From contig JANOHV010000262.1 of NCBI GenBank assembly GCA_031406795.1, positions 723 to 64,722 of the forward strand: DNA of 64,000 nucleotides, read 5' to 3'. Both the position numbers and the translations under genes were made by a program. How positions within the stretch are numbered: the first letter of the stretch is position 1; each line of letters opens with the position of its first letter. This stretch comes from Candidatus Rokuibacteriota bacterium (lineage in GTDB: Bacteria > JAUVQV01 > DATDCY01). Shown here in pieces: positions 41,642 through 60,556 of this stretch. The notes under the pieces were generated by a model that was not told where the DNA came from, did not search any database, and saw only the letters and a program-made list of their open reading frames with translations.

Positions 41642-41734
41642 CCTGACCGCGTAACCTGGACGGCGCGCTTGCGCCGGGTCTGCCGGCGCTGCTCGGCGCA
41701 GCGCGTCTCCCCTGTGCTATTCTTTCGACAGACC

Positions 41735-43530: not shown

Positions 43531-45024
43531 TCAGTGCTGCGGCGTCCCCGGTGCCGGTTCCTTGGCCGTCGCGACATGCACCCCGAGCTTGCGGCGGGTC
43601 TGGCGGCGGTGTTCGGCGAGCTCCTCGAGCGTCATGTTCATCATCCGGGCGGCCTTCGCGGTCCGCTCCGGGGTGCAGAAGTTGATCCGGTCCCACTCGA
43701 ACGCGCGCAGCACCATCAGCTCGAACGGCGTGAACTCGTCCGTCGCGATGAACGCCTGGGCGTAGCCGAGGTACTTCGGGTCGCGGAAGTCGAAGTCCGC
43801 GGGCAGCACGCCGGCGTCCTTCGCGAGGCGGTAGAGGTCGGTCTTCGGCAGCGGCGTGGCGATGTGGAAGTGCACGAGGTCGAACGCACACCGGTCGGCG
43901 AACGCGAAGGTCATCCGCAGCTCCTCCCAGGTTTCCCCGGGGAAGCCGATCACGAAGTTCGCGCCGAGATCGATGCCGATCTCCCTGCACCAGCGCACGA
44001 CCGGCTCCACGCTCGCCAGCTTGAGCGGCTTGCGGATCACCTGGTTGAGCACGCGCGGACTGCCCGACTCCACCGAGATCGTCAGCTGCACGCAGCCGCT
44101 GGCCTTCATCAGCTTGAGCAGCGGCTCGTCGAGGTGCCAGGCCGCGACGCTCGCGGCCTTCCAGGTCAGGCCCCAGCCGCGCGACAGCATCGCGCCGAGC
44201 AGCGCCTCGATGCGCGGCCGGTTGCCGAGCAGGCAGTCGTCGATGAAGACCAGGTGGCGTACGCCGAACTTCGTGCGCAGGAAGTCGATCTCCTCGAGGA
44301 CCTCCTCGACGGGCCGGTAGACCACGCCGCGGCCGCTGATCGTGCGCGTCGCGCAGAAGAGGCAGTTGTACGGGCACCCGTACGAGGAGATGATCGGCGC
44401 CGAGCGCTCGCGGGCGTTAAACTGGTAGTCCTTCGAGGCCTGGTCGACGTAGGCCGCGACGTCGATCAGCGAGTAGTCCGGCCGCTCGAGCTTCTTGACG
44501 GCGGTGATGTAGCTCGCCACCGGGTTGATGACCGGCTCGCCGCGCTCGTCGCGGTAGCCGACGCCCGGCAGCGCCCGGACGCGTTCGGTCTCGCCGGCGA
44601 GCACCTGCTTCAGGAAATCAACGGCGCGCTCCTCGGCGTGGCCGACGAAGATCCAGTCGATGTTCGGGTCGCGGAGGACCTCCTCGCCGAGGACGGTCGG
44701 GTAGACGCCGCCGAGGATGGTGACGGCGTCCGGGCAGCTCTCCCGCACCAGCGCGGGGACCGCGTGGTACTGCCGGTGGTACTCCACCGCGAGCGCCGAG
44801 ACCAGCACCGCGCGCGGCTGGTGCTCGCGCAGCCAGGAGCGCACGTCGTCCTCGGAGAGGTCGGCGGCGTTGGCGTCGAGGATCCGGAAGTCGAACTCCT
44901 CCTTGAGCAGGGCGGTGAGGATCAGCGCTGCGTGCGGCAGGATCATCCAGCCCTTCTTCCCCTGCCAGCGCGAGTTGGGGATCACCAGCGCGACCAGCGC
45001 GGCCTGGTGCGGGACGGTAGTCAT
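43531..45024 (-). CDS. B12-binding radical SAM protein (class B radical SAM, probable methyltransferase)
   Basis: ORF track 497 aa. N-terminal cobalamin-binding-like domain, CPYNCLFC radical SAM motif, and GGAGGAG RBS. Confidence 0.85.
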   Translation of the reverse strand: MTTVPHQAALVALVIPNSRWQGKKGWMILPHAALILTALLKEEFDFRILDANAADLSEDDVRSWLREHQPRAVLVSALAVEYHRQYHAVPALVRESCPDAVTILGGVYPTVLGEEVLRDPNIDWIFVGHAEERAVDFLKQVLAGETERVRALPGVGYRDERGEPVINPVASYITAVKKLERPDYSLIDVAAYVDQASKDYQFNARERSAPIISSYGCPYNCLFCATRTISGRGVVYRPVEEVLEEIDFLRTKFGVRHLVFIDDCLLGNRPRIEALLGAMLSRGWGLTWKAASVAAWHLDEPLLKLMKASGCVQLTISVESGSPRVLNQVIRKPLKLASVEPVVRWCREIGIDLGANFVIGFPGETWEELRMTFAFADRCAFDLVHFHIATPLPKTDLYRLAKDAGVLPADFDFRDPKYLGYAQAFIATDEFTPFELMVLRAFEWDRINFCTPERTAKAARMMNMTLEELAEHRRQTRRKLGVHVATAKEPAPGTPQH

Positions 45025-46339: not shown

Positions 46340-48214
46340 TCACGGCGGCGCGCCGCCGCGTCTGGCGCCGTGCCGCGCGCCATGGATCCCGATCGCCGCG
46401 GCCATGACGATGAGGAGATAAACGGGGTCCGAGTAGCGCTGGTGGGCCTGGGCCATGACGCTGACGACCGCGTACTGGGAGAAGCCGAGGAGCAGCAGCA
46501 GGCACAGCAGCGGGCGTGCGCGGCCGGCCCAGCCGAAGGGGAGGAAGATCAGGCACGCCGCAAGGACGAGCGGCTTGAGGAGGTAGCCGCCGCGATACAG
46601 AAAATCGAAGAAAGGGGTGGAAGGCTTCCCGCCGCTGACCTCGGCCCGCAGCTCTTCCGGCAGCTTTTCGAGACCGGAGCTCAGATAGGGGATTCCCGCC
46701 AGGTCGGTGGTGCGCACCGCCTTCCCGTACCGTACGTCGTTCGGGCCGGCCGCGAGCATCAGGAAATTGTCCCAGAAGAGCAGGGCGCTCTTCGGGTAGG
46801 CCCGCAACGCCTCGAATGCCACGTCCTTCAGGAGCCGATCGGCTGCGGCCGATCCGTACAGCTGCCAGGCGGCGTTCCAGATCAAGGGATAGTAGCCGGC
46901 CTCTTGGTCCTCAATGAACAGAGGGGCGTCTGCGCTGTCGTAACCTCCCGAGGACATGCCGTAGTTCGCGACCGCCTGATACAGCTGTCGCGTGGCCGGA
47001 CCGTTTTCCGGCCTGATCAGCCGGAATGGCCGGTCGGGATCGTAGGCCCCGTGGTGGCGCCCCGCGACGTACACTTCCCAGAACAGACTCGCGCCACCCA
47101 GGCGGCTGGGAACGCCCAGTGAGAGATGGGCGCCGAGCCCCCGCAACCCGGTCTGGCCGTACTCGCCGGGAATGGCGGCGAACAGATCCGCGGCCCCCTT
47201 CGGGCCCAGTTCCGCCGCGGCCACGACAGACATGAAGCGGAAGTATTCGGCGTTCGGCCTGAGGAAGATCTCCCTGAGCAACCCGTCGGGGTCCCCGGCA
47301 TAGGCGGCGAACCACGGCTGCGGCGTGCGGAAGCTCCACAACCCCGGCTTCTCGTGCAGGAAGCGCGACAGGCAATCGTACAGCGCCCGGCTCGCCGGCC
47401 CCCGCTCCGGGGTGATGAGCGGCCGCGGCTGCTCGTAATCCCGGAAGTTCTTCGACCAGGTCGAGTAGTAGGTCTCCACGAATCGCTGCTCGGTGAGCTC
47501 GCGAGAGAGGCGCAGTTCATGGGGCAGCCGGTCGCAGTGGCCGAGCAGGAGCCAGTCCACCCCGGACCACGCCACCAGGAGGGAGCAGTACAGGCCCGCG
47601 GCCAGCAGCGGGTGCCTGATGCGGCGCGGAGCGGCCAGCATCGCGACGGGGAGGAACACCCAGAAGACCAGGCCGGCGGCGGGCCGCGTGAACACCATGG
47701 CGAACGCCGTCAGGGTGGCGAGGTACAGGAAGATCGGCGCGCGCCGCCCGGAGAAGTAGCGCGAGGCGAGGAAGACGAAGAGGAACTGGAGGAACAGGTT
47801 CAGGTGGTCGGTCATCACCATGTTGGCGTAGATGAAGGGGATCGGCACGCCGATCGCGACGAGCGCCGCCGCACGCGCCGCCGTTCGGCCGACCGGGAGC
47901 AGCGTGCCGTAGATCAGCAGGGGAATGGCCAGGCCCAGCAGAGCCTGGACCGCCACCAGGCCCCGGAACGTGTCGAACCAGGTGACGCCGGTCAGGACCA
48001 GGAAGAGGGGATACCCCGGCGGACGGTGGTCGGCGTAGTTCTGGTGGGGGTTTGCCGCGAGGTTCCTGGCATTGGCGAGGTACTGGGTGGAGTCCATGGT
48101 GAAATGCGTGTGGGTGGTCGCCAGCCACCAGAGCATCATCGCCGAGCCGAGGGCGACAAGGATGACGAGGTCCCTGCCGGATGCTGCGGCGGATGCACGG
48201 GGCGCTTCAGCCAT
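46340..48214 (-). CDS. GT-C membrane glycosyltransferase (GT39/GT83, PMT_2/ArnT-like)
   Basis: Track ORF 46340-48241; ATG 48214 is preceded by AGAGGAA. The N-terminal motif DSTQYLANARNL..HRPPGYPLFL resembles the GT39/83 D(E)..Y....KPPL block. More than 10 TM helices. Confidence 0.6.
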   Translation of the reverse strand: MAEAPRASAAASGRDLVILVALGSAMMLWWLATTHTHFTMDSTQYLANARNLAANPHQNYADHRPPGYPLFLVLTGVTWFDTFRGLVAVQALLGLAIPLLIYGTLLPVGRTAARAAALVAIGVPIPFIYANMVMTDHLNLFLQFLFVFLASRYFSGRRAPIFLYLATLTAFAMVFTRPAAGLVFWVFLPVAMLAAPRRIRHPLLAAGLYCSLLVAWSGVDWLLLGHCDRLPHELRLSRELTEQRFVETYYSTWSKNFRDYEQPRPLITPERGPASRALYDCLSRFLHEKPGLWSFRTPQPWFAAYAGDPDGLLREIFLRPNAEYFRFMSVVAAAELGPKGAADLFAAIPGEYGQTGLRGLGAHLSLGVPSRLGGASLFWEVYVAGRHHGAYDPDRPFRLIRPENGPATRQLYQAVANYGMSSGGYDSADAPLFIEDQEAGYYPLIWNAAWQLYGSAAADRLLKDVAFEALRAYPKSALLFWDNFLMLAAGPNDVRYGKAVRTTDLAGIPYLSSGLEKLPEELRAEVSGGKPSTPFFDFLYRGGYLLKPLVLAACLIFLPFGWAGRARPLLCLLLLLGFSQYAVVSVMAQAHQRYSDPVYLLIVMAAAIGIHGARHGARRGGAPP

Positions 48215-48632
48215 GCTCGGTTCCTCTTCTCGGTGGCACACGATCCCGCGACGGGACTGCGATCCCGCCCTGGTTCTTGTACTTGAAACGGTTCCGGCGC
48301 GTCAAAGCAATACTGCCGGTCCGCATTCCGCGCGCAACGCGGATGAGTGAAGGCAGCTTGTCAAATCGGCCTGAAATCGCTGGCTTCTTCTGTTGCACGA
48401 CCGACCTTCATGACCCACGTGTTCCTTGATCTGAACAAAGTCAGGTTTCAGGAGGTTGAAATGCGGTCGACCGCAGGCCGGCAAGTTCCGGCGGCGCTCT
48501 GCGCCCAAATCCGCGCGTAACGCGCGGTTCAGTCGAGGCAGGCTGCGCGATTCCCGTTGACAAGACGTGTCCCGACGGAGAAAACTTCACAATTCGGTAT
48601 ACGGCAGGTCCGCGGCAGGCGGGAGGGATGCG

Positions 48633-49337
48633 ATGGCCGGTGGCGAGGGGAAGATGAAAGAGGCGCAGTACGATTTTCTTCTCGATCAGGAGGCGTCCGC
48701 GGGAGCGGAGACGCTGGGCCTGATGGCCAGCCACGTCTGGCGGGACGACCCGAAGCGGCTCTGCTTCCTGCTCGCCCGCTACAAGTTCGTCGCCAAGATG
48801 CTCGCCGGCTCCGCGTCGGCGCTCGAGGTCGGGTGCGCCGACGCCTTCGGCACGCGCCTGGTGCGCCAGGAGGTCCCCCGGGTGGTGGCCACGGACTTCG
48901 ACCCGGAATTCATCGAGCGCAACCGGGCGCGCGACCAGGGGCGCTGGGGCATCGAGTTCCGCGTGCACGATCTGCTCGCCGGGCCGGTGGCAGAGGGCTT
49001 CGACTCCGCCTACGCCGTGGATGTCCTCGAGCACGTCCAGGCCGCGGACGAGGAGCGCTTCGTGGCCAATCTCGCGGCGTCGCTCGGCCCGCACGGCGTC
49101 GGGATCATCGGCACGCCGACGATCCAGTCCCAGGCCTACGCCTCCGCCGCCAGCCGCGCGGGCCACGTCAACTGCAAGGACGCGCCCGGCCTTTCGCGCC
49201 TGCTGCGGGGCTTCTTCCGCAACGTCTTCATCTTCTCGATGAACGACGAGGTGGTGCACACCGGCTTCACGCCGCTGGCCCACTATCTCTTCGCGTTGTG
49301 CTGCGGTCCGGTCCCGGGCGGCCTGCCGCGGCGCTAG
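48633..49337 (+). CDS. SAM-dependent methyltransferase
   Basis: Track ORF 48567-49337; ATG 48633 follows GGGAGGG. ALEVGCADAFGTRL and AYAVDVLEHV motifs. Confidence 0.75.
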   Translation: MAGGEGKMKEAQYDFLLDQEASAGAETLGLMASHVWRDDPKRLCFLLARYKFVAKMLAGSASALEVGCADAFGTRLVRQEVPRVVATDFDPEFIERNRARDQGRWGIEFRVHDLLAGPVAEGFDSAYAVDVLEHVQAADEERFVANLAASLGPHGVGIIGTPTIQSQAYASAASRAGHVNCKDAPGLSRLLRGFFRNVFIFSMNDEVVHTGFTPLAHYLFALCCGPVPGGLPRR

Positions 49338-49353
49338 CGGCGGGGGAGGAGGG

Positions 49354-51858
49354 GTGACGCAACCGGCCGCGGCGACCCGATCCGCCGCCCTGCCAGCCGC
49401 CGGTCTGCCCGCCGCCCGTCAGCACCTGCTGGCGCTCGCCGTGCTGCTCGCGATCACTCTCGGCTTCTTCTCCCCCTACCTCTTCCAGGGGAGAGTCTTC
49501 CTCGCGGGCGACGCGCTGTACTCCTACCTGCCCTGGAGCGGCTACGCGACGCCGGGCCAGCGGCCGAAGAACACCCTGATCACTGATCCGGTCAACGCGA
49601 ACTTCGCGGGTCTCTACAACGAGCAGCTCAAGTCCGGTGGCCTGCAGCACTGGAACCCCTGGATTCTGACCGGGCTGCCGAGCACCGGGGTGACGTCGAT
49701 GAGCGGCGGCGCGCCCGGCCGCTATTACCCGCTCAAGCTGCTGCTGCACCGCTGGCTGCCGACTCTCCACGCGTTCATGTGGCTGCTGATCATCCACGTG
49801 TTCCTCGCCGGCGCCCTCCAGTACTGGTACCTGCGGGAGATCGGCGCGGGCTTCGCGGGAGCGCTCTTCGGCGGGGTTGCGTTCATGCTCAACGGCTACG
49901 CGCTGGTCTGGCTGGAGTTCGAGAGCGTGGTCGCCGTCGCGGCCTTCCTGCCGCTGCTGCTGCTGATCATGGAGCGCTACCGGCGCCGGCCGGCGCGCTA
50001 CGGGCTGCTCGGGGCGGTGGTGCTCGGCATCGTCGCCCTCTCCGGCCAGATCCAGTACCTGATCTACACCGCGCTGCTGCTGCTCTGCTACGCCGCCTTC
50101 CTGCTCGTCCGCTCCTGGCGCGAGCGCCGCGACCCCCGCGAACTGCGCGCGATCGCGCTGGCCTTCTGCGGCACCTGCGCGCTCGGAGCGCTGATCGGGG
50201 CCGTGGAGCTGCTGCCGACGCTCGACCTGATCCAACACAGCAGCCGCATCGCGCGCACTTTCACGTTTTCGACCTTCTTCGAGACCCTCGGGCGGGTCCC
50301 CTGGCGCTATTTCGTCACGCTGCTCTTCCCGGATTTCTTCGGCAGCCCGGTCCTCGGCTTCAACCTCGTGCCCCGCCTGCCGACCCAGGAGTACATGAAC
50401 TACAACGAGCTTTGCGTCTATCTCGGGGTGCCGACTCTCTTCGCGCTGGTGGCGCTCCCGCTGGGCCCGAAGCGGCCCCACGCGCAGCTGTATCTCGCGC
50501 TGACGGCGGTCGTGGCGCTGCTGCTGGCCGGGACGGTCCTGTACTACCCGCTCTTCGCCCTCTTCCCGGGGATGGACAGGATGAATCCGACGCGGCTGAT
50601 CTTCCTGTTCGTCTTCGTCGCCTCCGCCGCGGCGGGGCTCGGCCTCGACGGGCTCGCGGGGCTCTCGCGGCGACGCCGGCTCGTCTTCTCGGCGCTGGCG
50701 CTCGCGCTGCTGGGGGGGGCGGCGGCCCTGGCCGTTGCGGGAGGGTCGAGCGGGGCTCTGGCCGTCTGGTTCAACGCCGAGGCGTTTGCCGGCGGCACCG
50801 ACCCGGTCCTGCTCGACGCGCTGGTGCGCCTGCGGGCCTGGCCCGCGGCGCTGGTGGTCAAGCCGGTGCTGCTCGCTCTTAGCGCCGCCGCGCTGCTGAT
50901 CGCGTACGCCTGGTGGCAAAACCGCGCGGCGCGCCAGGCGGCACTGGCTCTGCTCGTCGCGCTGCTCGGCTACGACCTGGGGAGCTTCGGCTGGGGCTAC
51001 AACGCGATCGTCGAGCCGCGGCAGGTCTACCCGCGCACGCCCGCCATCGATTTTCTGACCAGCCGGCCCGGGCCGTTCCGGGTCGTGCTCGACGGCCGGC
51101 AGCCGTTCCTGATCAACTCGCTGGCCCCGTACGGCATCCAGGAGGTGGGTGGCTACAGCAGCTTCTACCCGGCGGCAGCCGGACGCTATCTCTCGTTCAT
51201 GCAGTACGGGGAGGACGCGGCGCGCGGCGCGCGGTTCGACCGGTGGGTGGCGTTCAGCCGCCCGCAGGCCGCGCTGCTCAACCTGGCGAACGCCCGGTAC
51301 CTGCTCACCGCGCCCGGCGTCGTCGTGAACAATCCGATCTATCGCCTCGTCTTCCGCGAGGACCTGGCGGTCTACGAGAACACCGCGGCCCTGCCCCGGG
51401 CCTTTGCGGTGCACCGCGCGCGGGCGGTCCCCGACGCCGACCAGGCGCTGCGCCTGCTCGGGTCCGGCGGTGTCGATCCCGGCGCGGAGGTCATCCTCGA
51501 GCGGCTGCCCGACGCGGCCTTTCTCGCCGGGGTGCGCGAGGGGGCGGGTGGCGATCGGGTGAGCATCGAGCGGTACACGCCGGACCGCGTCGAGGTGCTC
51601 GCGGAGCTGGGAGCGGCGGGGTGGCTGGTGCTCTCCGACGCCTGGGACCCCGGGTGGCGCGCCGAGGTCGACGGCTCGCCGGCCGCGATTGAGCGGGCCG
51701 ATACCTGTTTCCGGGCGGTGGCGCTCGGCCCGGGGCGGCACACGGTGACGTTTGCCTACGTCCCCCGCGCCTTTCACCTCGGCCTGCTGCTCACCGGCGT
51801 CGCACTGGCGCTCGTCGCCGGCGGGATCGCCTGGGACTCGCGCGGGCGGCGGGCGTGA
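49354..51858 (+). CDS. YfhO family membrane protein (GT-C glycosyltransferase of GtrB/GtrA/YfhO-type three-component systems)
   Basis: ORF track 834 aa. GTG start after GGGGGAGGAGGG. Many TM helices, and a characteristic YfhO C-terminus (GWRAEVDGSPAAIERADTCFRAVALGPGRHTVTFAYVP). Confidence 0.8.
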   Translation: MTQPAAATRSAALPAAGLPAARQHLLALAVLLAITLGFFSPYLFQGRVFLAGDALYSYLPWSGYATPGQRPKNTLITDPVNANFAGLYNEQLKSGGLQHWNPWILTGLPSTGVTSMSGGAPGRYYPLKLLLHRWLPTLHAFMWLLIIHVFLAGALQYWYLREIGAGFAGALFGGVAFMLNGYALVWLEFESVVAVAAFLPLLLLIMERYRRRPARYGLLGAVVLGIVALSGQIQYLIYTALLLLCYAAFLLVRSWRERRDPRELRAIALAFCGTCALGALIGAVELLPTLDLIQHSSRIARTFTFSTFFETLGRVPWRYFVTLLFPDFFGSPVLGFNLVPRLPTQEYMNYNELCVYLGVPTLFALVALPLGPKRPHAQLYLALTAVVALLLAGTVLYYPLFALFPGMDRMNPTRLIFLFVFVASAAAGLGLDGLAGLSRRRRLVFSALALALLGGAAALAVAGGSSGALAVWFNAEAFAGGTDPVLLDALVRLRAWPAALVVKPVLLALSAAALLIAYAWWQNRAARQAALALLVALLGYDLGSFGWGYNAIVEPRQVYPRTPAIDFLTSRPGPFRVVLDGRQPFLINSLAPYGIQEVGGYSSFYPAAAGRYLSFMQYGEDAARGARFDRWVAFSRPQAALLNLANARYLLTAPGVVVNNPIYRLVFREDLAVYENTAALPRAFAVHRARAVPDADQALRLLGSGGVDPGAEVILERLPDAAFLAGVREGAGGDRVSIERYTPDRVEVLAELGAAGWLVLSDAWDPGWRAEVDGSPAAIERADTCFRAVALGPGRHTVTFAYVPRAFHLGLLLTGVALALVAGGIAWDSRGRRA

Positions 51859-51886
51859 GCCCGGGCGCAACGGCAGCGGCCTCGCC

Positions 51887-53011
51887 GTGACCGAACCGAT
51901 CCGCTCCCTCGACGAGATCCCCCGCGGGCTGCGCCTCTGCCTCTACGGCGCGGGAGAGGGGGGCGCGCACTTCCTCGAAGTGCTCCGGGCGCAGCGGCCC
52001 GACCTGGCCGTCGTCCGGTTCGTCGACGACGAGCGCCGCGGCGCGCGCGGTGGCGTGCCGATCGCTTCCCCCGGCGACGAGGGGGCGCTCACGGCGGTCG
52101 ATCTGGTGCTGATCACCTCCTCCTGGTGGCGTGCAATCGTAGCCCGTCTCGCCGGGCAGGGCGTTGCCGGCTTCCGCGTGGTGGACCCGTCGCTCTTCTT
52201 TCTCCAGCACGTCTTCACCGCCGCGGAGCAGGCGGCGGCGGCCCCGCTCGCCGTGCGCGCCGAAGCCCTCCTCGCGTTGCCGGAGGACCGCGCGCTCTAC
52301 CGCGCAGTGCTCGCCAATCGCGGTCTGTTCGGGAGCGGCGGCGCGGTCGACCCGTACCGGCTTTTCACCGCGGGCGCTCCCCCGCGGGCGGAGTACCTCG
52401 ATTTCATCGTCTGGGAGCGCGTGCGCCGTGCCGTCGACGGGGGGGCGCTCGACGGGAAGAACACGCTCGAATTCCTCGGCCGCATGCCCCCGGGCGGCGA
52501 GGTCTGGGCGTTCGAGCCGGGAGCCGACGCACTGCGGCACGGCCCGCACGCTGCGGCGCTCGCCCGCTCGCCGGGCGCGCATCTGTGTCCCGCGGCGCTC
52601 TGGAGCAGCTCGGGTTCGGTCGTCTTCCGCGCGGACAGCGGCAACCCCGCCGGCTCGACGGTCCTCGGCGGCGGGTCGGCCCCGGCGGCGGGCCGCACGG
52701 TGCCGGCGGTGGCGATCGACGACTTCGCCGCCGCCCCCGGGATCGGCCGCCTCGACTTCATCAAGCTCGACGTGGAGGGGGCGGAGCCGGAGGTCCTCGC
52801 CGGGGCTGCCCGGACGCTCGCATTGTGCCGGCCGCAGCTGGCCGTCTGCATCTACCACCGCAAGGAACACCTCTACGGCATCCCGCTGCAGCTCGCCGCG
52901 CTGCTGCCGCGGTACGTGCACCGCATCGGGCACTACTCGCCCTCGTTCTGGGACACGGTCTGGTACGCGATCCCCGCGGAGCTGCTCGACGGCGGGGGGG
53001 GCTCGCCGTGA
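51887..53011 (+). CDS. FkbM family methyltransferase
   Basis: In-frame part of track ORF 51752-53011; GTG 51887. FIKLDVEGAEPEVL is the FkbM signature region. Confidence 0.75.
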   Translation: MTEPIRSLDEIPRGLRLCLYGAGEGGAHFLEVLRAQRPDLAVVRFVDDERRGARGGVPIASPGDEGALTAVDLVLITSSWWRAIVARLAGQGVAGFRVVDPSLFFLQHVFTAAEQAAAAPLAVRAEALLALPEDRALYRAVLANRGLFGSGGAVDPYRLFTAGAPPRAEYLDFIVWERVRRAVDGGALDGKNTLEFLGRMPPGGEVWAFEPGADALRHGPHAAALARSPGAHLCPAALWSSSGSVVFRADSGNPAGSTVLGGGSAPAAGRTVPAVAIDDFAAAPGIGRLDFIKLDVEGAEPEVLAGAARTLALCRPQLAVCIYHRKEHLYGIPLQLAALLPRYVHRIGHYSPSFWDTVWYAIPAELLDGGGGSP

Positions 53012-53934
53012 GCGGCAGCGCGCCGGCGCCGCTGCCGCTGCCGGCGGGGTTGCCCCGCACCGCGATCATCGGCGCGGCGGGTTTTCTCGGCCGGGCCTTC
53101 CTCGCGGCCTACCGGCGCGAGCACCCCGGCACGATCGGGGCCGCGCGGGCGGCCGGGCCGGGGCTGCTGCCGCTGGACCTGGCGTCGCCGGGACCCCTGG
53201 CAGCCCGGCTGGCCGAGACCGGGCACCGCGAGGCGCTGATTCTCGCCGGCGTCGCCTCGATCGTGCGCTGCGAGCGCGACCCGGCAGGAACGCGCGCGGT
53301 CAACGTCGAGGGGACGCTGCGGCTCACCAAAGCGCTGCGGGCGGTCGGGGTCCGCCCGGTCTTCGCGTCGAGCGACTACGTCTTCGACGGTGCGCGCGGG
53401 GGCTACCGCGAGGGGGACCGCCCGGCGCCGGGCACCGAGTACGGGCGGCAGAAGGCCGAGACCGGGGCGCGCCTGCTCGAGGCCTGCGGGGGGGATTGCC
53501 GCATCCTGCGCCTGAGCAAGGTCTTCGCCCTCGAGCGCGGCGGGGGGACCCTGCTCGACGAGCTGGCCGCGCGGCTGGTCTCGGGCGCGGGTGTCGACGC
53601 CGCGGACGACAACATCTTCTGCCCGACGCGGCTCGAGGATCTCATCACTGCGGTCGCGCTCGTCCAGGCGCGCGATCTGCGCGGCCTCGTCCACGTCTGC
53701 GGCTCCGAGGCGCGCTCCTGGCACGATCTGGCCGCCGCGCTGGCGGCGGCGCTCGGCGTCGATCCGCTGCTCGTGCGCCGCTGCTCGATCGACGACATCC
53801 AGCGCGACCCGCGGCGGCCGAAGGACATCAGCATGAACAACGAGCGGCTCGTGCAGGCGACCGGGTGCGCCTTCACGCCGGTCGCGGCCAGCGTCGAGCG
53901 CGTCGCCGCGCAGTGGCGGGAGCCTGGCCGGTGA
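53008..53934 (+). CDS. NAD(P)-dependent sugar-nucleotide reductase/epimerase, RmlD-like
   Basis: In-frame part of track ORF 52126-53934. GTG 53008 overlaps the upstream TGA. AIIGAAGFLGRAF Rossmann motif and YGRQK (YxxxK). Confidence 0.7.
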   Translation: MSGSAPAPLPLPAGLPRTAIIGAAGFLGRAFLAAYRREHPGTIGAARAAGPGLLPLDLASPGPLAARLAETGHREALILAGVASIVRCERDPAGTRAVNVEGTLRLTKALRAVGVRPVFASSDYVFDGARGGYREGDRPAPGTEYGRQKAETGARLLEACGGDCRILRLSKVFALERGGGTLLDELAARLVSGAGVDAADDNIFCPTRLEDLITAVALVQARDLRGLVHVCGSEARSWHDLAAALAAALGVDPLLVRRCSIDDIQRDPRRPKDISMNNERLVQATGCAFTPVAASVERVAAQWREPGR

Positions 53935-54362
53935 GTCCGCGCAGGCTCGTCCGGCGGCTCGCGCACTCGACACTGGCGCGCTTCGTCGCGGTCGGCGTGC
54001 TCAATACCGCGTTCAGCTACCTGCTCTATGCGGCGCTCGTGCTCGCCCGCATCGACTACCGCTGGGCCCTGACGATCTGCAGCGCCGTCACGATCATCTG
54101 GAACTTCAACACGACCGGGAGGCTGGTCTTCGGCAACCGGCGCCAGGCGCTGATCTTCAAGTTCATCGCCGGCTACGGCGCGATCTATCTGGTCAACCTC
54201 GGGCTGCTGATCCTGCTGGCCCGCCTCGGGGTCGGCGAGCTGGCCCGCCAGGCGGTCGCGCTGCCGTTCATCGTCGTCTTCTCCTTCATCCTCAACCGCG
54301 CCTGGGTCTTCCGGGATCACCGCCACCCGACGTTCGGACACCGGCACCCGCCCGTCGGCTGA
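53931..54362 (+). CDS. GtrA family membrane protein (lipid-linked sugar flippase-like)
   Basis: In-frame part of track ORF 52164-54362. GTG 53931 overlaps the upstream TGA. Four TM helices and a GtrA-like pattern (RFVAVGVLNTAFSYLLY..IIWNF). Confidence 0.8.
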   Translation: MSPRRLVRRLAHSTLARFVAVGVLNTAFSYLLYAALVLARIDYRWALTICSAVTIIWNFNTTGRLVFGNRRQALIFKFIAGYGAIYLVNLGLLILLARLGVGELARQAVALPFIVVFSFILNRAWVFRDHRHPTFGHRHPPVG

Positions 54363-54472
54363 TGTAACCGCCGCCCCCCGGAGGCGTACTATCTATTGTG
54401 AAATTGACCCGCGGGATTCCGCGGTGGTATGGTGTTTCCGGGGTAGTCAGGCTGGCACGAAAGGAGCAGAGC

Positions 54473-55996
54473 ATGGCGAAGTCAAAATCTCTTGTCTTTT
54501 TAGGCATGTACCTTGTCGTAGCCGCATTCGTCGCCGGACCGGCCCTGGCTCTGTCGTTCACGGACGTGACCAAGGGGTCCGGCGCCGACGACAAGGGGCG
54601 CGGCAAGGGCGTGGCCTTCGCCGACATCGACGGTGACGGCGATTACGACCTCTACGTCTCGAACAAGGGGGGCGCCAACAAGCTCTACCGGAACGACAGC
54701 ACCCCCGGGGACATCAAGTTCACCGACATCACGGCTGCGGTCGGCGACAACCTCGGCGACGTCGGCTTTTCCATGGGTTCCGCCTTCGCCGACGTCGACA
54801 ACGACGGCCGGCCGGACCTGTTCATTGCCAAGGGCGGTCAGGGCGAAGTCGAGGCCAACCGGCTCCTCCGCAACGTGAGCACCCCCGGACGCATCAAGTT
54901 CGTCGACATCTCCGTCGAGGCCGGCGTCAACACGAAGGACTTCACCTATCAGGGCGCTTTCGCGGACTACGACAACGACGGCCGGCTCGACCTGTTCATG
55001 GCGAACTACGGCGTCGGCGTCAAGAACCGCCTCTTTCACAACGACAGCACGTCCGGCCGCGTCAGGTTCACCGAGGTCAGCGCCAAGGCGGGCGTCGGCG
55101 CACCGGGCTGGTCCTGGGCGGCGACCTGGGCCGACGTCGATGGTGACGGCTTCCAGGATCTCTATGTCGTTCGCGGGCGCTATCCGGCCGGCGAGCCGAA
55201 CCTGATGTACCGCAACAACCACGACGGCACGTTCACCGAGATCGGTCGCGAGACCGGCCTGAACGACCCGAACTGGGGTCTCGGCGCCGCGTGGGCCGAC
55301 GTCGACAACGACGGCGATTTCGATCTCTATCTCTCGAACTACGTCGGCGGCAACAAGCTCTTCCTCAACGAGGGCGGCTGGAAGTTCACGGACGCCACGA
55401 AGACCGCGAAGCTCGACTTCCACGGCTGGGGCAAGGGCCCGACCTTCGCAGACGCCGACCACGACGGCGACCTCGACCTTTACGAGGGGGACTGCAAGAT
55501 CGGCAACCAGCTGTACATCAACGACGGCCGTGGGACGTTCGCGAACGTCATCGAGAAATTCCCCTTCATGAAGAACGAGGGCGTCCGCACGAAGGGCACC
55601 GCGTTCACCGATCTCGACAGCGACGGCGACATGGATCTCTTCGTCGTGCAGTGGAACGTGCCGAACAAGATTTACCGCAACGACCAGAACGACAAGGGCT
55701 TTCTCAAGGTGCGTCTCGCCGGGACGATCAGCAACCGGATGGCGATCGGCAGCCTCGCCCGGGTCTATGACGCCGGGTTCGCCGAGGACCAGAAGCACTT
55801 CCGCGGCGTCCGCGAGCTGCGCACGGCCACCGGTTTCTGCGCCCAGGAGGGCCAGGAGCTGCACTTCGGCGTGCCCGCTGCCGGGACCTACGACGTGGTC
55901 GTGAACTTCCCGAGCGGCGTGAAGGTCATCCAGCGCGGCGTGAAGGCCGGCCAGGTCCTGAGGATCGAGGAGCCGAACGCCATCGCCAGCAAGTAG
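54473..55996 (+). CDS. secreted FG-GAP/VCBS repeat protein with C-terminal ASPIC/UnbV domain (CRTAC1-like)
   Basis: Track ORF 54398-55996; ATG 54473 follows AAGGAG. Repeated FADIDGDGDYDLYV, FADVDNDGRPDLFI, WADVDGDGFQDLYV motifs. Confidence 0.8.
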   Translation: MAKSKSLVFLGMYLVVAAFVAGPALALSFTDVTKGSGADDKGRGKGVAFADIDGDGDYDLYVSNKGGANKLYRNDSTPGDIKFTDITAAVGDNLGDVGFSMGSAFADVDNDGRPDLFIAKGGQGEVEANRLLRNVSTPGRIKFVDISVEAGVNTKDFTYQGAFADYDNDGRLDLFMANYGVGVKNRLFHNDSTSGRVRFTEVSAKAGVGAPGWSWAATWADVDGDGFQDLYVVRGRYPAGEPNLMYRNNHDGTFTEIGRETGLNDPNWGLGAAWADVDNDGDFDLYLSNYVGGNKLFLNEGGWKFTDATKTAKLDFHGWGKGPTFADADHDGDLDLYEGDCKIGNQLYINDGRGTFANVIEKFPFMKNEGVRTKGTAFTDLDSDGDMDLFVVQWNVPNKIYRNDQNDKGFLKVRLAGTISNRMAIGSLARVYDAGFAEDQKHFRGVRELRTATGFCAQEGQELHFGVPAAGTYDVVVNFPSGVKVIQRGVKAGQVLRIEEPNAIASK

Positions 55997-56023
55997 CCGG
56001 TCGGTTCCCCGGCTCGTTCATCC

Positions 56024-56064
56024 GGCTGCCCGCGTGTTCACGAAACGCGGGCAGCTTTCTTTTC
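56024..56064 (+). terminator. rho-independent terminator
   Basis: GGCTGCCCGCG-tgttcacgaaa-CGCGGGCAGC hairpin followed by TTTCTTTTCG, immediately after the 55996 stop. Confidence 0.75.
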
Positions 56065-56086
56065 GCCTTCCGGCAAGGGGGAGTAG

Positions 56087-57166
56087 TTGACGACGCATAT
56101 CCCCGCCAATCCCGCCATCGCAGTTGCCGCGCTCTTTGCCGTCGCTCTCGCCGGCTGCGCCGTGAACCGGCCGCCGGTTGCGAGCACCGTCCCGACCGTT
56201 GGCCTGGTGCAGGTCCGGCTCATGCACCGGGAGCACGCGGTCCCGGGAATCAGGGTGACCGCGGTGCGAAACCTCGGGGTCGCCCTGCTGGAGGAGCGGA
56301 TCGTCGCTGACGCCACCGCGGACGGCCCTGCGCGACTCGGCCTCGCGCCGGGGAGCTGGTATCTCTCGGCGTCGACCGGCGAGCCGGCGCTCTTCGGCTG
56401 GTACGGATCAAATCCCGTCATGGTCCGCGCCGGGGAGACGGTCGAGGTCACTATCCCGGCGGTCCCCGCTCCAGGCGCCATCACGGTGACCTCCGTCTCG
56501 CCGGGAGAGGAAGCGGTCGCGGGAGAGGTCCTTGGCGACACCGGAGCCATCCCCGGAGCCGGGGTGGCATTCTATCTGGACGCGTCGACCCAGTTTCGGG
56601 GGCCGGGTTACATCGAGGCCCGGGCGGACGAGCGCGGTATCTTCGAGACGCGCCTCTCCCCGGGGCGCTACTGGATCTTTGTCCGCCGCCGCTCGAGACC
56701 GCAGGTTTTCGGTCCGCTGGAGGCGGGAGACGACTTCGGCTCCTACCCCGGCAACCCACTCGAGATCCGGGCGGGGGAGCGGGTGGCGATCCGCATCCCG
56801 ACCGTGCGCGTCCTGAAGAAGAGCGGCTGGAGCGCCCCCTCGGCGTTGCGCACCCGCGTCAGCGGCACGATTCGCGACACGGCCGGGCGCCCGCTCCCCG
56901 GGTTCCGCGCCTTTCTCCACGCGAAAACTACGATGCTCGGCAAGCCGGAGTTCGTTTCGGAGCCGAGCGGGGCGGACGGCTCCTACCTGGTCTGGGTCGA
57001 CCGCGAAGGCGTCTATTACCTGGGCGCGCGAGCGGAGATTGGGCGTGCACGCGAGGAGCGCGAGCTGATCGGCCTCTACGCGGGCTCCCCCGACCACGCG
57101 ATCGAGGTGCGGCTGGACGCGGGCGCGCTCCCGGCGATGGACATTGTCGTGGGCGGCGCGCCATGA
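56087..57166 (+). CDS. lipoprotein with three carboxypeptidase-regulatory-like repeats
   Basis: ORF track 359 aa. TTG start after AAGGGGGAG. Lipobox LAGC. Repeats end in SWYLSASTGEP, RYWIFVRRRSRP and VYYLGARAEIGRA. Confidence 0.75.
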   Translation: MTTHIPANPAIAVAALFAVALAGCAVNRPPVASTVPTVGLVQVRLMHREHAVPGIRVTAVRNLGVALLEERIVADATADGPARLGLAPGSWYLSASTGEPALFGWYGSNPVMVRAGETVEVTIPAVPAPGAITVTSVSPGEEAVAGEVLGDTGAIPGAGVAFYLDASTQFRGPGYIEARADERGIFETRLSPGRYWIFVRRRSRPQVFGPLEAGDDFGSYPGNPLEIRAGERVAIRIPTVRVLKKSGWSAPSALRTRVSGTIRDTAGRPLPGFRAFLHAKTTMLGKPEFVSEPSGADGSYLVWVDREGVYYLGARAEIGRAREERELIGLYAGSPDHAIEVRLDAGALPAMDIVVGGAP

Positions 57167-58005
57167 GGTATTTATGGGTGTGCTTTGTCGCGGCCTGCCT
57201 GGCTCCCCTGACGGGGTGTGCTACGAACCAACCGCGTAACGGCTCTGCCCCGGGGGCGATTTGGACTTGGTCGGGCGAGCGCCGGATCGCCAACTACGTC
57301 GAGATCCCCGCCGGCGTCACGCTGCTGATCGCGCCGGGCACTACCCTGCGCTTCGCTTTCATCGACCGCGACGGTGACGGCATCGGAGACGCGGGCCTGC
57401 ACGTGCTCGGTCGCATCGAGGCCGTCGGGACGCCGACCGCACCGATTGTCTTCACCTCGGCGGAGGCCGACCCCCAGCCCGGCGACTGGCAGGGATTGGT
57501 CTTCGACGCATCGAAAGACAATCTCTTCCTGGAGAGCCGTTTCGAGTACGCGCAGCACGCGCTGCACGCGCACTTCTCCTCGGCGCGCCTGGAGCGCTGC
57601 CGGCTCGAACGCAACATCGAGGGAACCCGCCTCGGCAATTCAAGCTTCACGCTCGAGCGCTGCCTCGTGCGCGGCAACATCAGCAAGGGGCTCAATTTCT
57701 TCGGCTGCTCGAACATCATCCGCCGCAACTTGATCACCGGCAACACGGACGGGGTGTTCCTCTTCGAGACCGACACCAACTCGGTCGTCGAGGCCAACAA
57801 CATCGTCGGCAACCTGCGCTTCGACGTGCGTCTCGGCGATTTCTATCGCGGGGGCAAGACCATCGGCGAGAACTGGTTCGGGACCACCGATGTCGCCGCG
57901 ATCCGGGAGCGGGTTTTCGACGGGAAAAACGACCCGGGTCTCGGCCGGCTCGATTTCATCCCCGCGCCGCTGCCCTTCGACACCGGATGGGAGGGCGAAC
58001 CGTGA
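57163..58005 (+). CDS. right-handed parallel beta-helix repeat lipoprotein (NosD-like), paralog of 20357-21208
   Basis: ORF track 280 aa. Lipoprotein signal LTGC. TLRFAFIDRDGDGIGDAGLHV..IVFTSAE is colinear with TVRFAWSDEDGNGIGDGELAV..ITFTSAR in the paralog. Confidence 0.8.
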   Translation: MRYLWVCFVAACLAPLTGCATNQPRNGSAPGAIWTWSGERRIANYVEIPAGVTLLIAPGTTLRFAFIDRDGDGIGDAGLHVLGRIEAVGTPTAPIVFTSAEADPQPGDWQGLVFDASKDNLFLESRFEYAQHALHAHFSSARLERCRLERNIEGTRLGNSSFTLERCLVRGNISKGLNFFGCSNIIRRNLITGNTDGVFLFETDTNSVVEANNIVGNLRFDVRLGDFYRGGKTIGENWFGTTDVAAIRERVFDGKNDPGLGRLDFIPAPLPFDTGWEGEP

Positions 58006-60416
58006 GCACCCCGGCGCTCGCGGGCTGGAACCAGCGACTCGGCGTCGGGCTGCTGATCAGCTCGCTCTGCCTGCTGGCTCTGGAACTGACGCTCTCGCGC
58101 ATCTTCTCGGTGCTGATGTGGTACCACTTCGTCTCGCTCATCGTCTCGCTGGCGCTCTTCGGCATCACGGTCAGCGGGCTGGCGGTCTTTCTCGTCCCTG
58201 AGCGCTTCCCCCGCGAGGCGACGGCCACCTGGATGGGGCGAGCCTCGCTGGCGCTGACCCTCGCGCTGCTCGCGCTCTGGACCTTCTTCCTGCTGCTCGC
58301 CCGCTCGCCGCAGCTGGCCTACCGCATTCTCGCCCCCTTTCACCAACCGCAGTACGAGCCCTTCGGCGCCGACAAGGTCACGCTCCTGGACGGCGGCCAG
58401 ATTCTGCCGCTGGCGGTGCTCTACCTGGTCTCCGCGCTGCCCTTCATTTTCGGCGGGTTCGTCGCGACGCTGGCCCTGACGCGGTATCAGGAACGAGTCG
58501 CGTCGGTGTACGCCTGGGACCTGGTCGGCGCCGGCCTCGGCTGCGTCGCGGCCTTCGCCCTGCTGACCTGGCTCGACCCCTTCGCCACGCTGGCGGCGCT
58601 GGCCGTTTTCGCGGCGCTTGCGGCCTGGGTCTTCTTCCGGGAGAGCGGCGGCCGCGGCGGCGCGCTCGGCGCGCTGGCGCTCGGGGCGCTCTCGCTCGCT
58701 CTCGTCGCGGCGACCGCGAGCGGCGGGATCGTGGAGTTGAAGTTCGTGCGCGGCCGCTATCAGCCGGACCTGCTGCTGACGCGCTGGAACTCCTACTCCC
58801 GGGTCGCGGTCTGGCCGCTGCGCACCGGCCAGGGCGAGGCCTCGTGGGGGATGAGCCGCGGCTACCGCGGACCGATCCCGGAGCAGTACGGTCTGGTGGT
58901 CGACGACACCGGCTACACCACGATCGCGCGCTACCGCCCCGGCGACGACCTGGGCTGGGCCCGCGCGAACCTGCTGTCGCTCCCCTACGCGGTTCGCGAG
59001 GACGCGCGGGCGCTGATCATCGGACCGGGTGGCGGCAAGGACATCCTGATCGCGCTGGCGAGCGGGGCAGCCGCGGTGCGTGCGGTCGAACTCAACCCGC
59101 TGGTCGTGCGCGCCGTCCAGGACGACTTCGGGGACTTTTCCGGCCGCCCGTACACGCTGCCGGGCGTCGAGAAGGTCGTGGACGAGGGGCGCACCTTCCT
59201 CGCGCACGACACCTCGCTCTACGACGTCATCCAGGCCACGGTCGTCTACGGCCGGCTCGCCCCGGCGGCCGGGGCTTTCACGTTCACCGAAGACCACCTC
59301 TACACGACCGAGGCGTTCCAGACCTACCTCGACCGGCTGGCGCCCGGGGGGATGCTGGCCTTCTCGCGCTTCATCTACGAGAAGCGCATCCTGCGGCTGG
59401 TTGCAACGGCGCGGGCGGCGCTCGAGGCGCGCGGTATCGCGGCGGCTCCCGGGTGCATCTTCATCGCGGCCGAGCGCGGCCTGGCCTCGGTGCTCATCAA
59501 GAACGCGCCGTTCACGGCGACGGAGCTTGCGGAGCTGCAGGGCCGCTGTCGCGAGCTGGGCTTCCAGGTGCTCTATGCTCCCGGCGGAGCGGGCGACAGC
59601 GCCATTGCCGACCTGCTGCGCGCGCCGGATCCGGCGGCGTACCTGGCCGCGCTGCCCTTCGACGCCACGCCGGTCGGCGACGACCGGCCGTTCTTCTACT
59701 ACCTGATGCGGCCAGGGGATTTCCTGCGCAGCGGCGCCGCCCGAGCGCCCGATTTCGAGGACCGGGGTCTGCTGCTGATGCGCAATCTGCTCGGCACGGT
59801 GTTTGGCCTGGTCATGCTGTGTATCGCGCTGCCGCTGGCGCGCTACGGTCGCCTGCGAGAGATCCGCTGGGGGCGCGCCTGGGCTGCGGTCGGGTATTTC
59901 GCGGCGATCGGACTGGGGTTCATCGTCGTCGAGATCGGCCTGCTCAAGCGCTTTCTGCTGCTGCTCGGCAAGCCGGCGTACACGCTGGCCGTGACGCTGG
60001 CGATCTTTCTCGCGGCCGGCGCGTTGGGCAGCGCCCGGGCCCGGTTGATGGCGGGAAACGCGCGCCTCGTTCGCCGCAGCTGCGCGCGCCTGACCATCGT
60101 CCTGCTCCTCACGGCCGTTCTGTTGCCGCCGCTGCTCGAGACGCTGCTTGCCGCGCCGCTCTGGGCCCGGCTTGCTGCGACCGTGGCGGTCATGGCGCCG
60201 CTGGGGTACCTCATGGGCCAGCCGTTGCCGGCCGGCCTCTCGCTGCTGCGCCAGCAGCGTCTCGTTCCCTGGGTCTGGAGCATCAACGGGGCGCTCTCGG
60301 TGCTCGGCTCGGTCGGGGCGCTCGTCCTCGCGGTCAACTTCGGCTACACGACGACGATGCTCGTCGGCCCGGCCTGCTACCTCGTCGCCGGCGCCCTCGC
60401 CGAACTGGTCGAATGA
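58002..60416 (+). CDS. spermidine-synthase-like (aminopropyltransferase/methyltransferase fold) domain fused between two polytopic membrane domains
   Basis: In-frame part of track ORF 57987-60416. GTG 58002 overlaps the upstream TGA. About 7 N-terminal and 7 C-terminal TM helices flank ALIIGPGGGKDI..VELNPLVV..GGMLAF (spermine/spermidine synthase-like). Confidence 0.65.
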   Translation: MSTPALAGWNQRLGVGLLISSLCLLALELTLSRIFSVLMWYHFVSLIVSLALFGITVSGLAVFLVPERFPREATATWMGRASLALTLALLALWTFFLLLARSPQLAYRILAPFHQPQYEPFGADKVTLLDGGQILPLAVLYLVSALPFIFGGFVATLALTRYQERVASVYAWDLVGAGLGCVAAFALLTWLDPFATLAALAVFAALAAWVFFRESGGRGGALGALALGALSLALVAATASGGIVELKFVRGRYQPDLLLTRWNSYSRVAVWPLRTGQGEASWGMSRGYRGPIPEQYGLVVDDTGYTTIARYRPGDDLGWARANLLSLPYAVREDARALIIGPGGGKDILIALASGAAAVRAVELNPLVVRAVQDDFGDFSGRPYTLPGVEKVVDEGRTFLAHDTSLYDVIQATVVYGRLAPAAGAFTFTEDHLYTTEAFQTYLDRLAPGGMLAFSRFIYEKRILRLVATARAALEARGIAAAPGCIFIAAERGLASVLIKNAPFTATELAELQGRCRELGFQVLYAPGGAGDSAIADLLRAPDPAAYLAALPFDATPVGDDRPFFYYLMRPGDFLRSGAARAPDFEDRGLLLMRNLLGTVFGLVMLCIALPLARYGRLREIRWGRAWAAVGYFAAIGLGFIVVEIGLLKRFLLLLGKPAYTLAVTLAIFLAAGALGSARARLMAGNARLVRRSCARLTIVLLLTAVLLPPLLETLLAAPLWARLAATVAVMAPLGYLMGQPLPAGLSLLRQQRLVPWVWSINGALSVLGSVGALVLAVNFGYTTTMLVGPACYLVAGALAELVE

Positions 60417-60447
60417 GCCCGGTGATGGAATTCGATTGCGAGAGTCA

Positions 60448-60539
60448 GGCGGAGGGGTGGCGCGGAGGTGTGGTCTCCGTCGGCGGACCGGAGGGAGCAC
60501 GCTGGAGGTCCGCAGCGTCAGGATCCCGGAGCCTGCACG
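60448..60539 (+). repeat. conserved ~93-nt intergenic element, copy B (5' of CarbopepD lipoprotein gene)
   Basis: About 85% identical to 28922-29014. Ends 17 nt before ATG 60557. Confidence 0.6.
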
Positions 60540-60556
60540 AGCCCGGGGGGACAAAG

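Follow-up and report, generated by a model that had tools for sequence, protein, structure and literature searches.

How a sugar might be loaded onto a lipid carrier, flipped and handed on outside the membrane is the question raised by a compact group of genes at 48633-54362 of a 64,000-nucleotide stretch of Candidatus Rokuibacteriota DNA (contig JANOHV010000262.1), the whole of which is referred to here as the window. The group encodes a YfhO-family protein and a small GtrA-family membrane protein; elsewhere the window holds two genes of glycosyltransferase family 2 (GT2), named here type A (GT2A) and type B (GT2B), and a divergently transcribed operon encodes two small membrane proteins, h174 and h179. 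On homology, gene context and a fold model these components probably constitute a three-component sugar-transfer module, in which a GT-A glycosyltransferase, a flippase and a GT-C glycosyltransferase would act in turn. The initial annotation of the window had arrived at the same GT2/GtrA/YfhO logic, which is now supported by profile hidden Markov models (HMMs), by the fold of the YfhO model, by the affinities of the GT2 proteins and by the gene context in relatives. Coordinates are collected in Table 1, and loci and proteins from other genomes carry L and P numbers respectively.

As the window is ~70% G+C, spurious frames fill its six-frame lists of open reading frames; gene calls relied on third-position GC together with codon usage as modelled from the window itself. 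By both measures five co-directional plus-strand genes, packed tightly at 48633-54362, form one operon. The same five genes had been called independently, and at the same coordinates, on an identical public contig of 6.2 kb (Logan assembly, SRR20217198), and the limits of the operon proposed in the initial annotation were thereby confirmed from two sides. The intergenic gaps measure 16 nt and 28 nt and are followed by two 4-nt GTGA start/stop overlaps, while the YfhO start is preceded by a strong ribosome-binding site, GGAGGAGGGG.

The YfhO protein scored 62.2 bits against PF09586, where the curated cut-off is 28.5, in two stretches of which the C-terminal one was the best, and the assignment made earlier from the translation alone withstood this comparison. 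The PF09586 annotation was also precomputed in all ~60 YfhO orthologues. The only NCBIfam matches were to PgfM2 and PgfM1, at 26 bits against a cut-off of 1,500 and over the C-terminal 65 residues only. A profile of 16 orthologues retrieved no solved relative by sequence, even at E<=1, and a comparison of folds was therefore required. An AlphaFold2 model was built on the alignment of the 16 orthologues and reached a predicted local distance difference test score (pLDDT) of 87.5 and a predicted template modelling score (pTM) of 0.88. The model places a membrane helix at residues 20-38, a structured loop at 39-125 and then a bundle of membrane helices, the next of which begins at residue 126, and it terminates in a beta-rich domain (~571-802) and a final helix (805-833), giving the protein a large extracytoplasmic domain followed by a terminal membrane helix.

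When the model was searched against the PDB with Foldseek, the best 14 matches were all GT-C enzymes. The leading matches were users of polyprenyl-monophosphate donors, namely AftD (E=7.7e-7), ArnT (E=3.1e-5, TM-score 0.50 on the target), AftA (E=5.4e-5) and EmbB (E=5.1e-4), and weaker matches were obtained with AglB, STT3, PglB, DPY19, Pmt4 and Pmt1. The catalytic acidic residues of GT-C enzymes sit in the first loop after the first transmembrane helix, TM1 (PMC8035078), and in the loop after TM1 of YfhO the residues D53 and D78 are invariant among the 16 orthologues, at identities down to 30%. These data support the YfhO protein as an enzyme of the GT-C fold, for which the transfer of a sugar is itself a prediction.

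GtrA, the second membrane component, likewise passed the Pfam cut-off for the family to which it had first been assigned (PF04138, 70.9 bits, cut-off 26.1). The start of its gene overlaps the upstream stop by 4 nt and YfhO lies 2 kb upstream in the same operon, a linkage that is kept in L030, L031, L034 and L040.

The first component is represented by the two GT2 genes. The GT2 domain claimed at 40853-41641 was recovered (PF00535, 63.6 bits), and no transmembrane segment was predicted in this type A protein. Its best PDB match was ArnC (9hwj, E=1.7e-6, residues 30-247), with DPMS (5mlz, 6yv7) and an archaeal GT2 scoring more weakly. The frameshift reported in the type B gene is real, as both of its halves align, in two frames and at 72% and 62% identity, to an intact 252-amino-acid (aa) GT2 of L032. 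The frame switches within a run of eight G (29435-29442), which could be an assembly error, the mark of a pseudogene or a phase-variable switch. The intact type B orthologue matched only DPMS 5mlz in the PDB (E=3.4e-8), and its best NCBIfam matches were AglJ, PpgS, a dolichyl-phosphate hexose transferase, PgfS and ArnC; scores against DPMS, AglJ and PpgS ranged from 37 to 71 bits, all under the equivalog cut-offs. By these matches both GT2 proteins resemble polyprenyl-phosphate sugar synthases.

Several observations weigh against a single module. The two GT2 genes of the window lie 7.7 kb and 19.5 kb from YfhO and neither adjoins it. GT2A scores similarly against the non-lipid GT2s PgaC and chondroitin synthase, and its match to ArnC is only 31 bits, while the more clearly DPM1-like of the two genes is the frameshifted copy. 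The matches to sugar-pathway enzymes are all under equivalog cut-offs, so that the identity of the sugar is a guess; no acceptor was identified, although several lipoproteins and secreted beta-helix and Ig-like proteins are encoded nearby; and the h174/h179 pair is found on contigs with no visible YfhO (L077-L080), which ties the pair to GT2 and sugar-synthesis genes and not to YfhO.

The link between YfhO and GT2 is drawn, despite these distances, from relatives in which the genes adjoin. An orthologue of GT2A directly follows YfhO in L031, a metagenome-assembled genome (MAG) of 'Candidatus Methylomirabilia', and GT2B lies next to YfhO, or almost so, in L004 (Desulfonema magnum), L020, L032, L039 and L063, loci in which GT2B is 59-79% identical and YfhO 28-46%. 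This arrangement bears on the donor of YfhO. The enzyme might instead use a Wzx-type polyprenyl-diphosphate oligosaccharide, as a ligase, polymerase or oligosaccharyltransferase, with GtrA and the GT2s serving other GT-C enzymes, and at least five other GT-C-like proteins of the window could indeed take a GtrA-flipped donor. Many homologues of ~1,300-1,460 aa (P0065-P0110) carry a Wzx-type flippase (PF01943/PF13440) fused to the YfhO domain, and for some YfhO enzymes this suggests the direct use of Wzx-flipped donors. However, the fusion proteins, of which the named ones come from Chloroflexi-type MAGs, are just 25-39% identical to the YfhO of the window, a small GT2 adjoins YfhO in at least seven related loci, and YfhO and GtrA share one operon. 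Furthermore, neither Wzx, Wzy or WaaL, nor an initiating phosphoglycosyltransferase or a Leloir glycosyltransferase of families GT1/GT4, was found among the window genes, which also favours decoration with a single sugar over the assembly of a polymer. A Wzx-flipped donor for this YfhO is thus quite improbable and, with the two other alternatives discussed below, is rated well below the three-component module.

Comparison of the window with L031 revealed a variable cassette, made up of the genes for YfhO, GT2, the small proteins and GtrA, with identities of 33-60% (YfhO 52%, GT2A 41-44%, h174 33%, h179 43% and GtrA 60%), whereas most genes of the flanks are 84-92% identical. Upstream, this higher range takes in the radical-SAM/SPASM gene, the short-chain dehydrogenase/reductase (SDR), the HAD-like gene, the transketolase halves, the methyltransferase and the Zn-dehydrogenase, with the APH-family kinase at 72%; in the downstream flank the FG-GAP gene is 86% identical, and it is 83-87% identical across L030, L031 and L048. 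On the strength of the 84-92% identity of the flanking genes to those of the named MAG, the source bacterium probably belongs to Methylomirabilota. The gene order in L031 is YfhO, GT2A, h174 and then h179 fused in frame to GtrA. In L033 a GT2A-h174-h179 operon adjoins a YfhO that is 81% identical, and window-type YfhO and FkbM (80-81%) are mixed with L031-type GT2A, h174 and h179 (37-46%), which indicates shuffling.

The genes that would tailor the sugar are exchanged with the cassette. FkbM and the RmlD-like reductase are kept in the closest relatives (L030, L034 and L040), and in L031 their place is taken by a DegT aminotransferase, a hexapeptide acyltransferase, a methyltransferase and a DUF6016 protein. 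A third version stands beside the same FG-GAP gene in L048 and consists of GT2B, a nucleotidyltransferase, an aminotransferase, a dehydratase, an epimerase, YfhO (46%), a carbamoyltransferase and FkbM. Reduction and transamination are the two classic fates of a nucleoside diphosphate (NDP)-4-keto-6-deoxy sugar. From this swap of a reductase for an aminotransferase, and from the conserved 4,6-dehydratase-like SDR upstream, we infer that the cassette sets the sugar substituent together with the transferase, flippase and GT-C enzyme that match it. At YfhO loci of ~30% identity, mostly from Desulfobacterales, FkbM and the RmlD-like gene were not conserved in tblastn searches and GtrA was present at one (L012), so that the exact composition of the operon is lineage-specific.

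Individually, the tailoring enzymes were assigned with different degrees of precision. The FkbM gene foreseen in the initial annotation is the third gene of the operon, which exceeds the cut-offs of both PF05050 (64.2 bits, cut-off 22.7) and TIGR01444 (71.1 bits, cut-off 37.7); the N-terminal ~180 aa of the protein had no Pfam match. An FkbM assignment for the first gene was rejected, the product being a generic Methyltransf_11 enzyme (MT11, 41 bits). An orthologue of MT11 with 57% identity adjoins a GT2A homologue in L081, a Bryobacteraceae MAG, and P0376 and P0340 are single-polypeptide MT11::GT2A fusions of 405-406 aa; on adjacency and fusion, MT11 is predicted to be functionally tied to the type A GT2. 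For the RmlD-like gene the PF04321 domain held (118.6 bits) and the RmlD equivalog did not (TIGR01214, 113 bits, cut-off 224), and RmlD proper was rejected in favour of an RmlD-like SDR. The translation contains the glycine-rich nucleotide motif GAAGFLG as well as SSDYVF and YGRQK, which are taken here to be catalytic on established knowledge of RmlD. In the PDB the regulatory subunit of human MAT2B (E=6e-15) matched best and structures of bacterial RmlD came after it, and the gene whose best solved relative is MAT2B is translationally coupled to the S-adenosylmethionine (SAM)-dependent FkbM gene. The likeness to MAT2B is probably a mere family resemblance.

The position of the tailoring genes, between YfhO and GtrA and translationally coupled to GtrA, raises the alternative that the reductase and the methyltransferase(s) edit the sugar on polyprenyl phosphate before it is flipped, and not the nucleotide sugar. 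The fusion of MT11 to GT2 in other genomes would fit action on the GT2 product, and a precedent exists in an SDR that edits an undecaprenyl-phosphate (undP)-pentose within a three-component system (PMC11127046); DprE1/DprE2 and the ORF13 epimerase of Citrobacter youngae O2 would be comparable. Yet there is no DprE1-like oxidase to make the keto group on a lipid-linked sugar, and the conserved upstream SDR offers an ordinary nucleotide-sugar 4-keto substrate. The exchange of FkbM and the RmlD-like gene for an aminotransferase and an acetyltransferase in L031 also follows the classic fate of an NDP-4-keto-6-deoxy sugar. Editing on the lipid therefore appears unlikely, and tailoring at the level of the nucleotide sugar is retained below.

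The minus-strand operon, which diverges from the YfhO operon, begins with a possible GT-C gene and continues with h174, h179 and a B12-radical-SAM gene; the last three are part of the module and had been missed in the initial annotation. h174 and h179 are distant paralogues (cross-profile E ~1e-5 to 1e-6), and neither had a significant match to a Pfam (E<=10) or NCBIfam (E<=1) family, the best Pfam match of h174 being a weak one to the winged-helix domain HVO_A0261_N (E=0.007). Membership of DUF2304, the GacJ family, was excluded, with zero matches even at E<=10. An exhaustive profile search for the h179 family returned 1,955 cluster representatives at E<=1e-3 and 1,345 at E<=1e-10, the ~1,950 clusters being defined at 50% identity. 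An AlphaFold2 model of h179 (pLDDT 84.6) shows three membrane helices, the third of which runs on into the cytoplasm, followed by a helix-helix-hairpin unit and a last hydrophobic helix. The best-conserved residues (Y83, Y85, N90, R97, R99 and E103) fall in or just after the third membrane helix. A search of this fold against the PDB gave winged-helix matches only, and these, being non-significant (best E=0.06), yield no function.

h174 is directly upstream of h179 wherever both were captured (the window, L030, L031, L033, L061 and L076-L080). The pair occurs together with the type A GT2 in L031, L033, L077, L078 and L080, and also travels with genes for B12-radical-SAM, radical-SAM/SPASM, split transketolase/E1-type thiamine pyrophosphate, HldE-like and SIS proteins; the B12-radical-SAM gene comes after the pair, or after GT2A, in L030, L078 and L080. 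A role as partners specific to YfhO was rejected, as the pair occurs with no visible YfhO nearby.

Two functions can be considered for the pair. The winged-helix character of the soluble parts, which for h179 is closest to the IclR, CRP and MarR types and MotA, and for h174 is seen in the HVO_A0261_N match, would suit membrane-tethered transcription regulators of the cluster. Such a function is very improbable, since the fold matches fall short of significance, the conserved residues lie at the third membrane helix and not in a recognition helix, one member is fused in frame to GtrA and the pair is always within biosynthetic operons. The other function is suggested by GacI/GacJ and PpgS/Rv3632, in which binding of a three-helix protein to the GT-A enzyme brings about a sharp fall in the enzyme's Km for undecaprenyl phosphate (10.1101/180810; PMC8035078). 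By analogy, h174 and h179 may play a GacJ-like role toward GT2A.

A further proposal, which is tentative and less probable than the module itself, is that h174 and h179 found a large undescribed family of heterodimeric membrane adaptors. Such an adaptor might join GT2A, and the fused or adjacent MT11, to GtrA, so that a single complex would make a polyprenyl-phosphate sugar, edit it and flip it; the lipid phosphate would be presented by the juxtamembrane motif rich in arginine, a role like the one proposed for GacJ towards GacI. Since genomes that are otherwise nearly identical differ in the pair along with GT2, GtrA and YfhO, the unit would act much as a serotype cassette does and vary the surface glycans of Methylomirabilota and further uncultured diderms.

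The possible GT-C at the head of the minus-strand operon had been listed simply as another GT-C. Of that description the multi-pass topology and a short N-terminal motif, MDSTQY...RPPGYP, stand, and they are the only features to suggest a GT-C; the match to PMT_2 (E=0.007, 17 bits) is below the cut-off of 26.1. The gene is absent from L030. Similarly, the divergent promoter island proposed at 48242-48632 corresponds to a real 418-nt gap between divergent genes, in which a sigma-70 consensus scan gave zero matches, and promoters within it are inferred from the gene arrangement only. A scan of the whole window found no Rfam family, so that the gap is not explained by a riboswitch or leader. A 15-nt GC-rich near-palindromic repeat, TCCGCGCGYAACGCG, occurs at 48327-48341 and 48510-48524, 183 nt apart, and only in this gap; two matches were also reached in 2 of 100 shuffles, and the repeats are a possible, statistically weak, operator pair.

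The genes upstream suggest where the sugar might come from. A conserved sugar-synthesis block at 29906-40856 (plus strand) encodes, first, a 323-aa uncharacterised protein, an HldE-like protein whose two domains stand in reversed order and a GmhA-like SIS protein, and then a radical-SAM/SPASM protein, the 4,6-dehydratase-like SDR, a HAD-like protein, an APH-family kinase, a split transketolase, a methyltransferase and a Zn-dehydrogenase. On L077-L079, which are unrelated metagenomic contigs, this combination is again seen around h174/h179. The block may make an unusual higher-carbon sugar, and a heptose-type origin is suggested only by sub-threshold matches to GmhA-, HldE- and HAD-like proteins together with the split transketolase. 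The RmlD-like reductase likely receives its 4-keto substrate from the SDR.

The following route is proposed for the module; all of its reactions, as well as the nature of the sugar, carrier lipid and acceptor and the part played by h174/h179, are predictions. The split transketolase, the GmhA-like, HldE-like and HAD-like (phosphatase) proteins and the 4,6-dehydratase-like SDR would give a nucleotide sugar, possibly of a 6-deoxy-heptose type. In the cytoplasm the RmlD-like protein would reduce the 4-keto intermediate and the FkbM and Methyltransf_11 enzymes would methylate the sugar. The GT2 without transmembrane segments (type A and/or, if intact, type B) would then load it onto polyprenyl phosphate at the inner membrane face, probably assisted by h174 and h179. 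GtrA would flip the lipid-linked sugar to the periplasmic face, and YfhO would pass the sugar to a periplasmic or outer acceptor. The neighbouring GT-C-like proteins with TPR repeats may use the same donor.

These neighbours are five TPR membrane proteins with an N-terminal YDD/LDD motif (1-1080, partial; 2214-3689; 6783-8483; 23431-25206; 41669-43510). They had been described as TPR-PMT-like GT-Cs; the membrane topology, repeats and motif are present, and the Pfam matches are to TPR repeats only, with the addition of TMTC_DUF1736 in one of the five. The TPR domains hint at protein acceptors, and the extensive extracytoplasmic glycosylation of proteins or a polymer that was first envisaged is plausible.

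Downstream of GtrA, the FG-GAP gene is best treated as a separate unit, given the promoter-like site of its own at 54404-54433. It opens a set of genes for secreted proteins and lipoproteins (54473-62312, also 19228-22296), whose order is kept in L030 and L031 and which is partly duplicated in the window; the set comprises FG-GAP/UnbV_ASPIC, CarboxypepD_reg and NosD-like beta-helix proteins and an 804-aa protein with ~15 transmembrane-like segments. Neither this 804-aa protein nor a multi-pass protein of 709 aa (8480-10609) had a family match. At 10705-19193, in between the GT-C genes with TPR repeats, is an unrelated redox cluster, which encodes DUF362, polyferredoxin-like 4Fe-4S, EB_dh (ethylbenzene-dehydrogenase-type haem) and HEAT-repeat proteins.

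Table 1. Coordinates of the module genes and of neighbouring features in the window
Feature	Position	Strand	Evidence and remarks
HldE-like nucleotidyltransferase+kinase, then GmhA-like isomerase (heptose-nucleotide-type)	31157-33499	+	rfaE domains I, II; gmhA 86 bits; below equivalog cut-offs
NDP-sugar 4,6-dehydratase-like SDR	34577-35575	+	GDP_Man_Dehyd, 159 bits; TIGR01181, 179 bits, below cut-off 365
GT2 type B (GT2B), DPM1-like	29031-29805	-	Reading frame broken
GT2 type A (GT2A), 262 aa	40853-41641	+	PF00535, 63.6 bits; candidate polyprenyl-phosphate sugar synthase
TMTC-like membrane protein with C-terminal TPR repeats, directly 3' of GT2A	41669-43510	+	TPR families; 8 transmembrane-like segments; N-terminal SLDDEVY
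B12-binding radical-SAM enzyme, last gene of minus-strand operon	43531-45024	-	PF02310, PF04055
h179, small membrane protein, 179 aa	45101-45640	-	Motif LSYCYFxFxNLGxTARRIRLL
h174, small membrane protein, 174 aa	45645-46169	-	3 predicted transmembrane helices; soluble C-terminal part, apparently winged-helix-like
Multi-pass membrane protein, possible GT-C, first gene of minus-strand operon	46340-48214	-	Multiple transmembrane segments
Intergenic region between divergent operons, 418 nt	48215-48632	.	GC below that of flanking genes
Class-I SAM methyltransferase (MT11), operon gene 1	48633-49337	+	Methyltransf_11, 41 bits
YfhO-family GT-C glycosyltransferase (predicted), 834 aa	49354-51858	+	PF09586, 62.2 bits
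FkbM-family methyltransferase	51887-53011	+	PF05050, 64.2 bits; TIGR01444, 71.1 bits
RmlD-like NAD(P)-dependent sugar reductase	53008-53934	+	PF04321 RmlD_sub_bind, 118.6 bits
GtrA-family small membrane protein, 143 aa, putative lipid-linked-sugar flippase	53931-54362	+	PF04138, 70.9 bits
Secreted FG-GAP/UnbV_ASPIC protein	54473-55996	+	Promoter-like site of its own at 54404-54433

To our knowledge, studies of YfhO-type glycosylation have been confined to Firmicutes, in which teichoic acids and adhesins are the decorated targets. The locus described here belongs to a YfhO clade that is well conserved in Methylomirabilota and Desulfobacterota, bacteria expected to be devoid of teichoic acids, and a YfhO wired to GtrA and small GT2s points to a periplasmic target of glycosylation in abundant, uncultured environmental diderms. 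The widespread h174/h179 pair may explain how GT2s without transmembrane segments reach a lipid substrate, the MT11-GT2 fusion suggests methylated lipid-linked sugars, and a variable cassette between conserved flanks is the signature of diversifying surface antigens.

Among the closest known systems are CsbB/GtcA/YfhO of B. subtilis and S. aureus, which place GlcNAc on lipoteichoic acid (PMC5836110, PMC8035078), and GtrA/GtrB/GtrC of Shigella and Salmonella, the serotype-converting system of O-antigen glucosylation. With CsbB/GtcA/YfhO the locus shares a YfhO GT-C, a GtrA and a GT2, the same predicted order of loading, flipping and transfer outside the membrane, and a YfhO whose C-terminal domain is large and extracytoplasmic and is followed by a last membrane helix. 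The host here is, however, probably a diderm without teichoic acids, so that the acceptor must differ, the GT2 lacks the membrane link of the classic GT-A enzymes (PMC8035078) and the operon includes methyltransferases and a reductase. Similarity to the characterised Gram-positive YfhO relatives is low, and against the models of the streptococcal PgfM1/PgfM2 only the C-terminal end matches. With GtrA/GtrB/GtrC the locus has in common the three-component logic and a variable, specificity-determining GT-C in a cassette that differs between related genomes. Unlike that system, it is not phage-borne, its GT-C is of the YfhO family and not of a Gtr type, the sugar is probably not glucose and the cassette also swaps sugar-tailoring genes.

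Three further systems are also close to the locus. In GacI/GacJ/GacK/GacL of Streptococcus pyogenes and PpgS/Rv3632 of Mycobacterium tuberculosis a GT-A enzyme without transmembrane segments is likewise accompanied by a separate three-helix membrane protein (10.1101/180810), and the genes for the two adjoin and are sometimes fused; h174 and h179 differ from GacJ in not being DUF2304 proteins, in forming a paralogous pair and in their soluble winged-helix-like part, and the fusion seen here joins h179 to GtrA and not to GT2. PgfS/PgfM1/PgfE/PgfM2 of Streptococcus mutans also combines YfhO-type GT-Cs with a GT2 and a sugar-modifying SDR, and makes protein a possible acceptor, although the matches are far below cut-offs and the phylum and gene set are different. 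The pentofuranose system of Citrobacter youngae O1/O2 (PMC11127046) is a Gram-negative periplasmic glycosylation in which an embedded SDR decides the sugar added, whereas its PRPP-dependent (phosphoribosyl pyrophosphate) polyprenyl-phosphoribose synthase, MATE flippase and GT136 GT-C have no counterpart here. The locus is a known kind of system in unstudied lineages, and what is new is a GT2 without transmembrane segments, an unrelated pair of small proteins, one of them seen fused to the flippase in L031, and a swappable cassette. Current ideas are not overturned; a known mechanism is extended to new lineages and candidate components are added to it.

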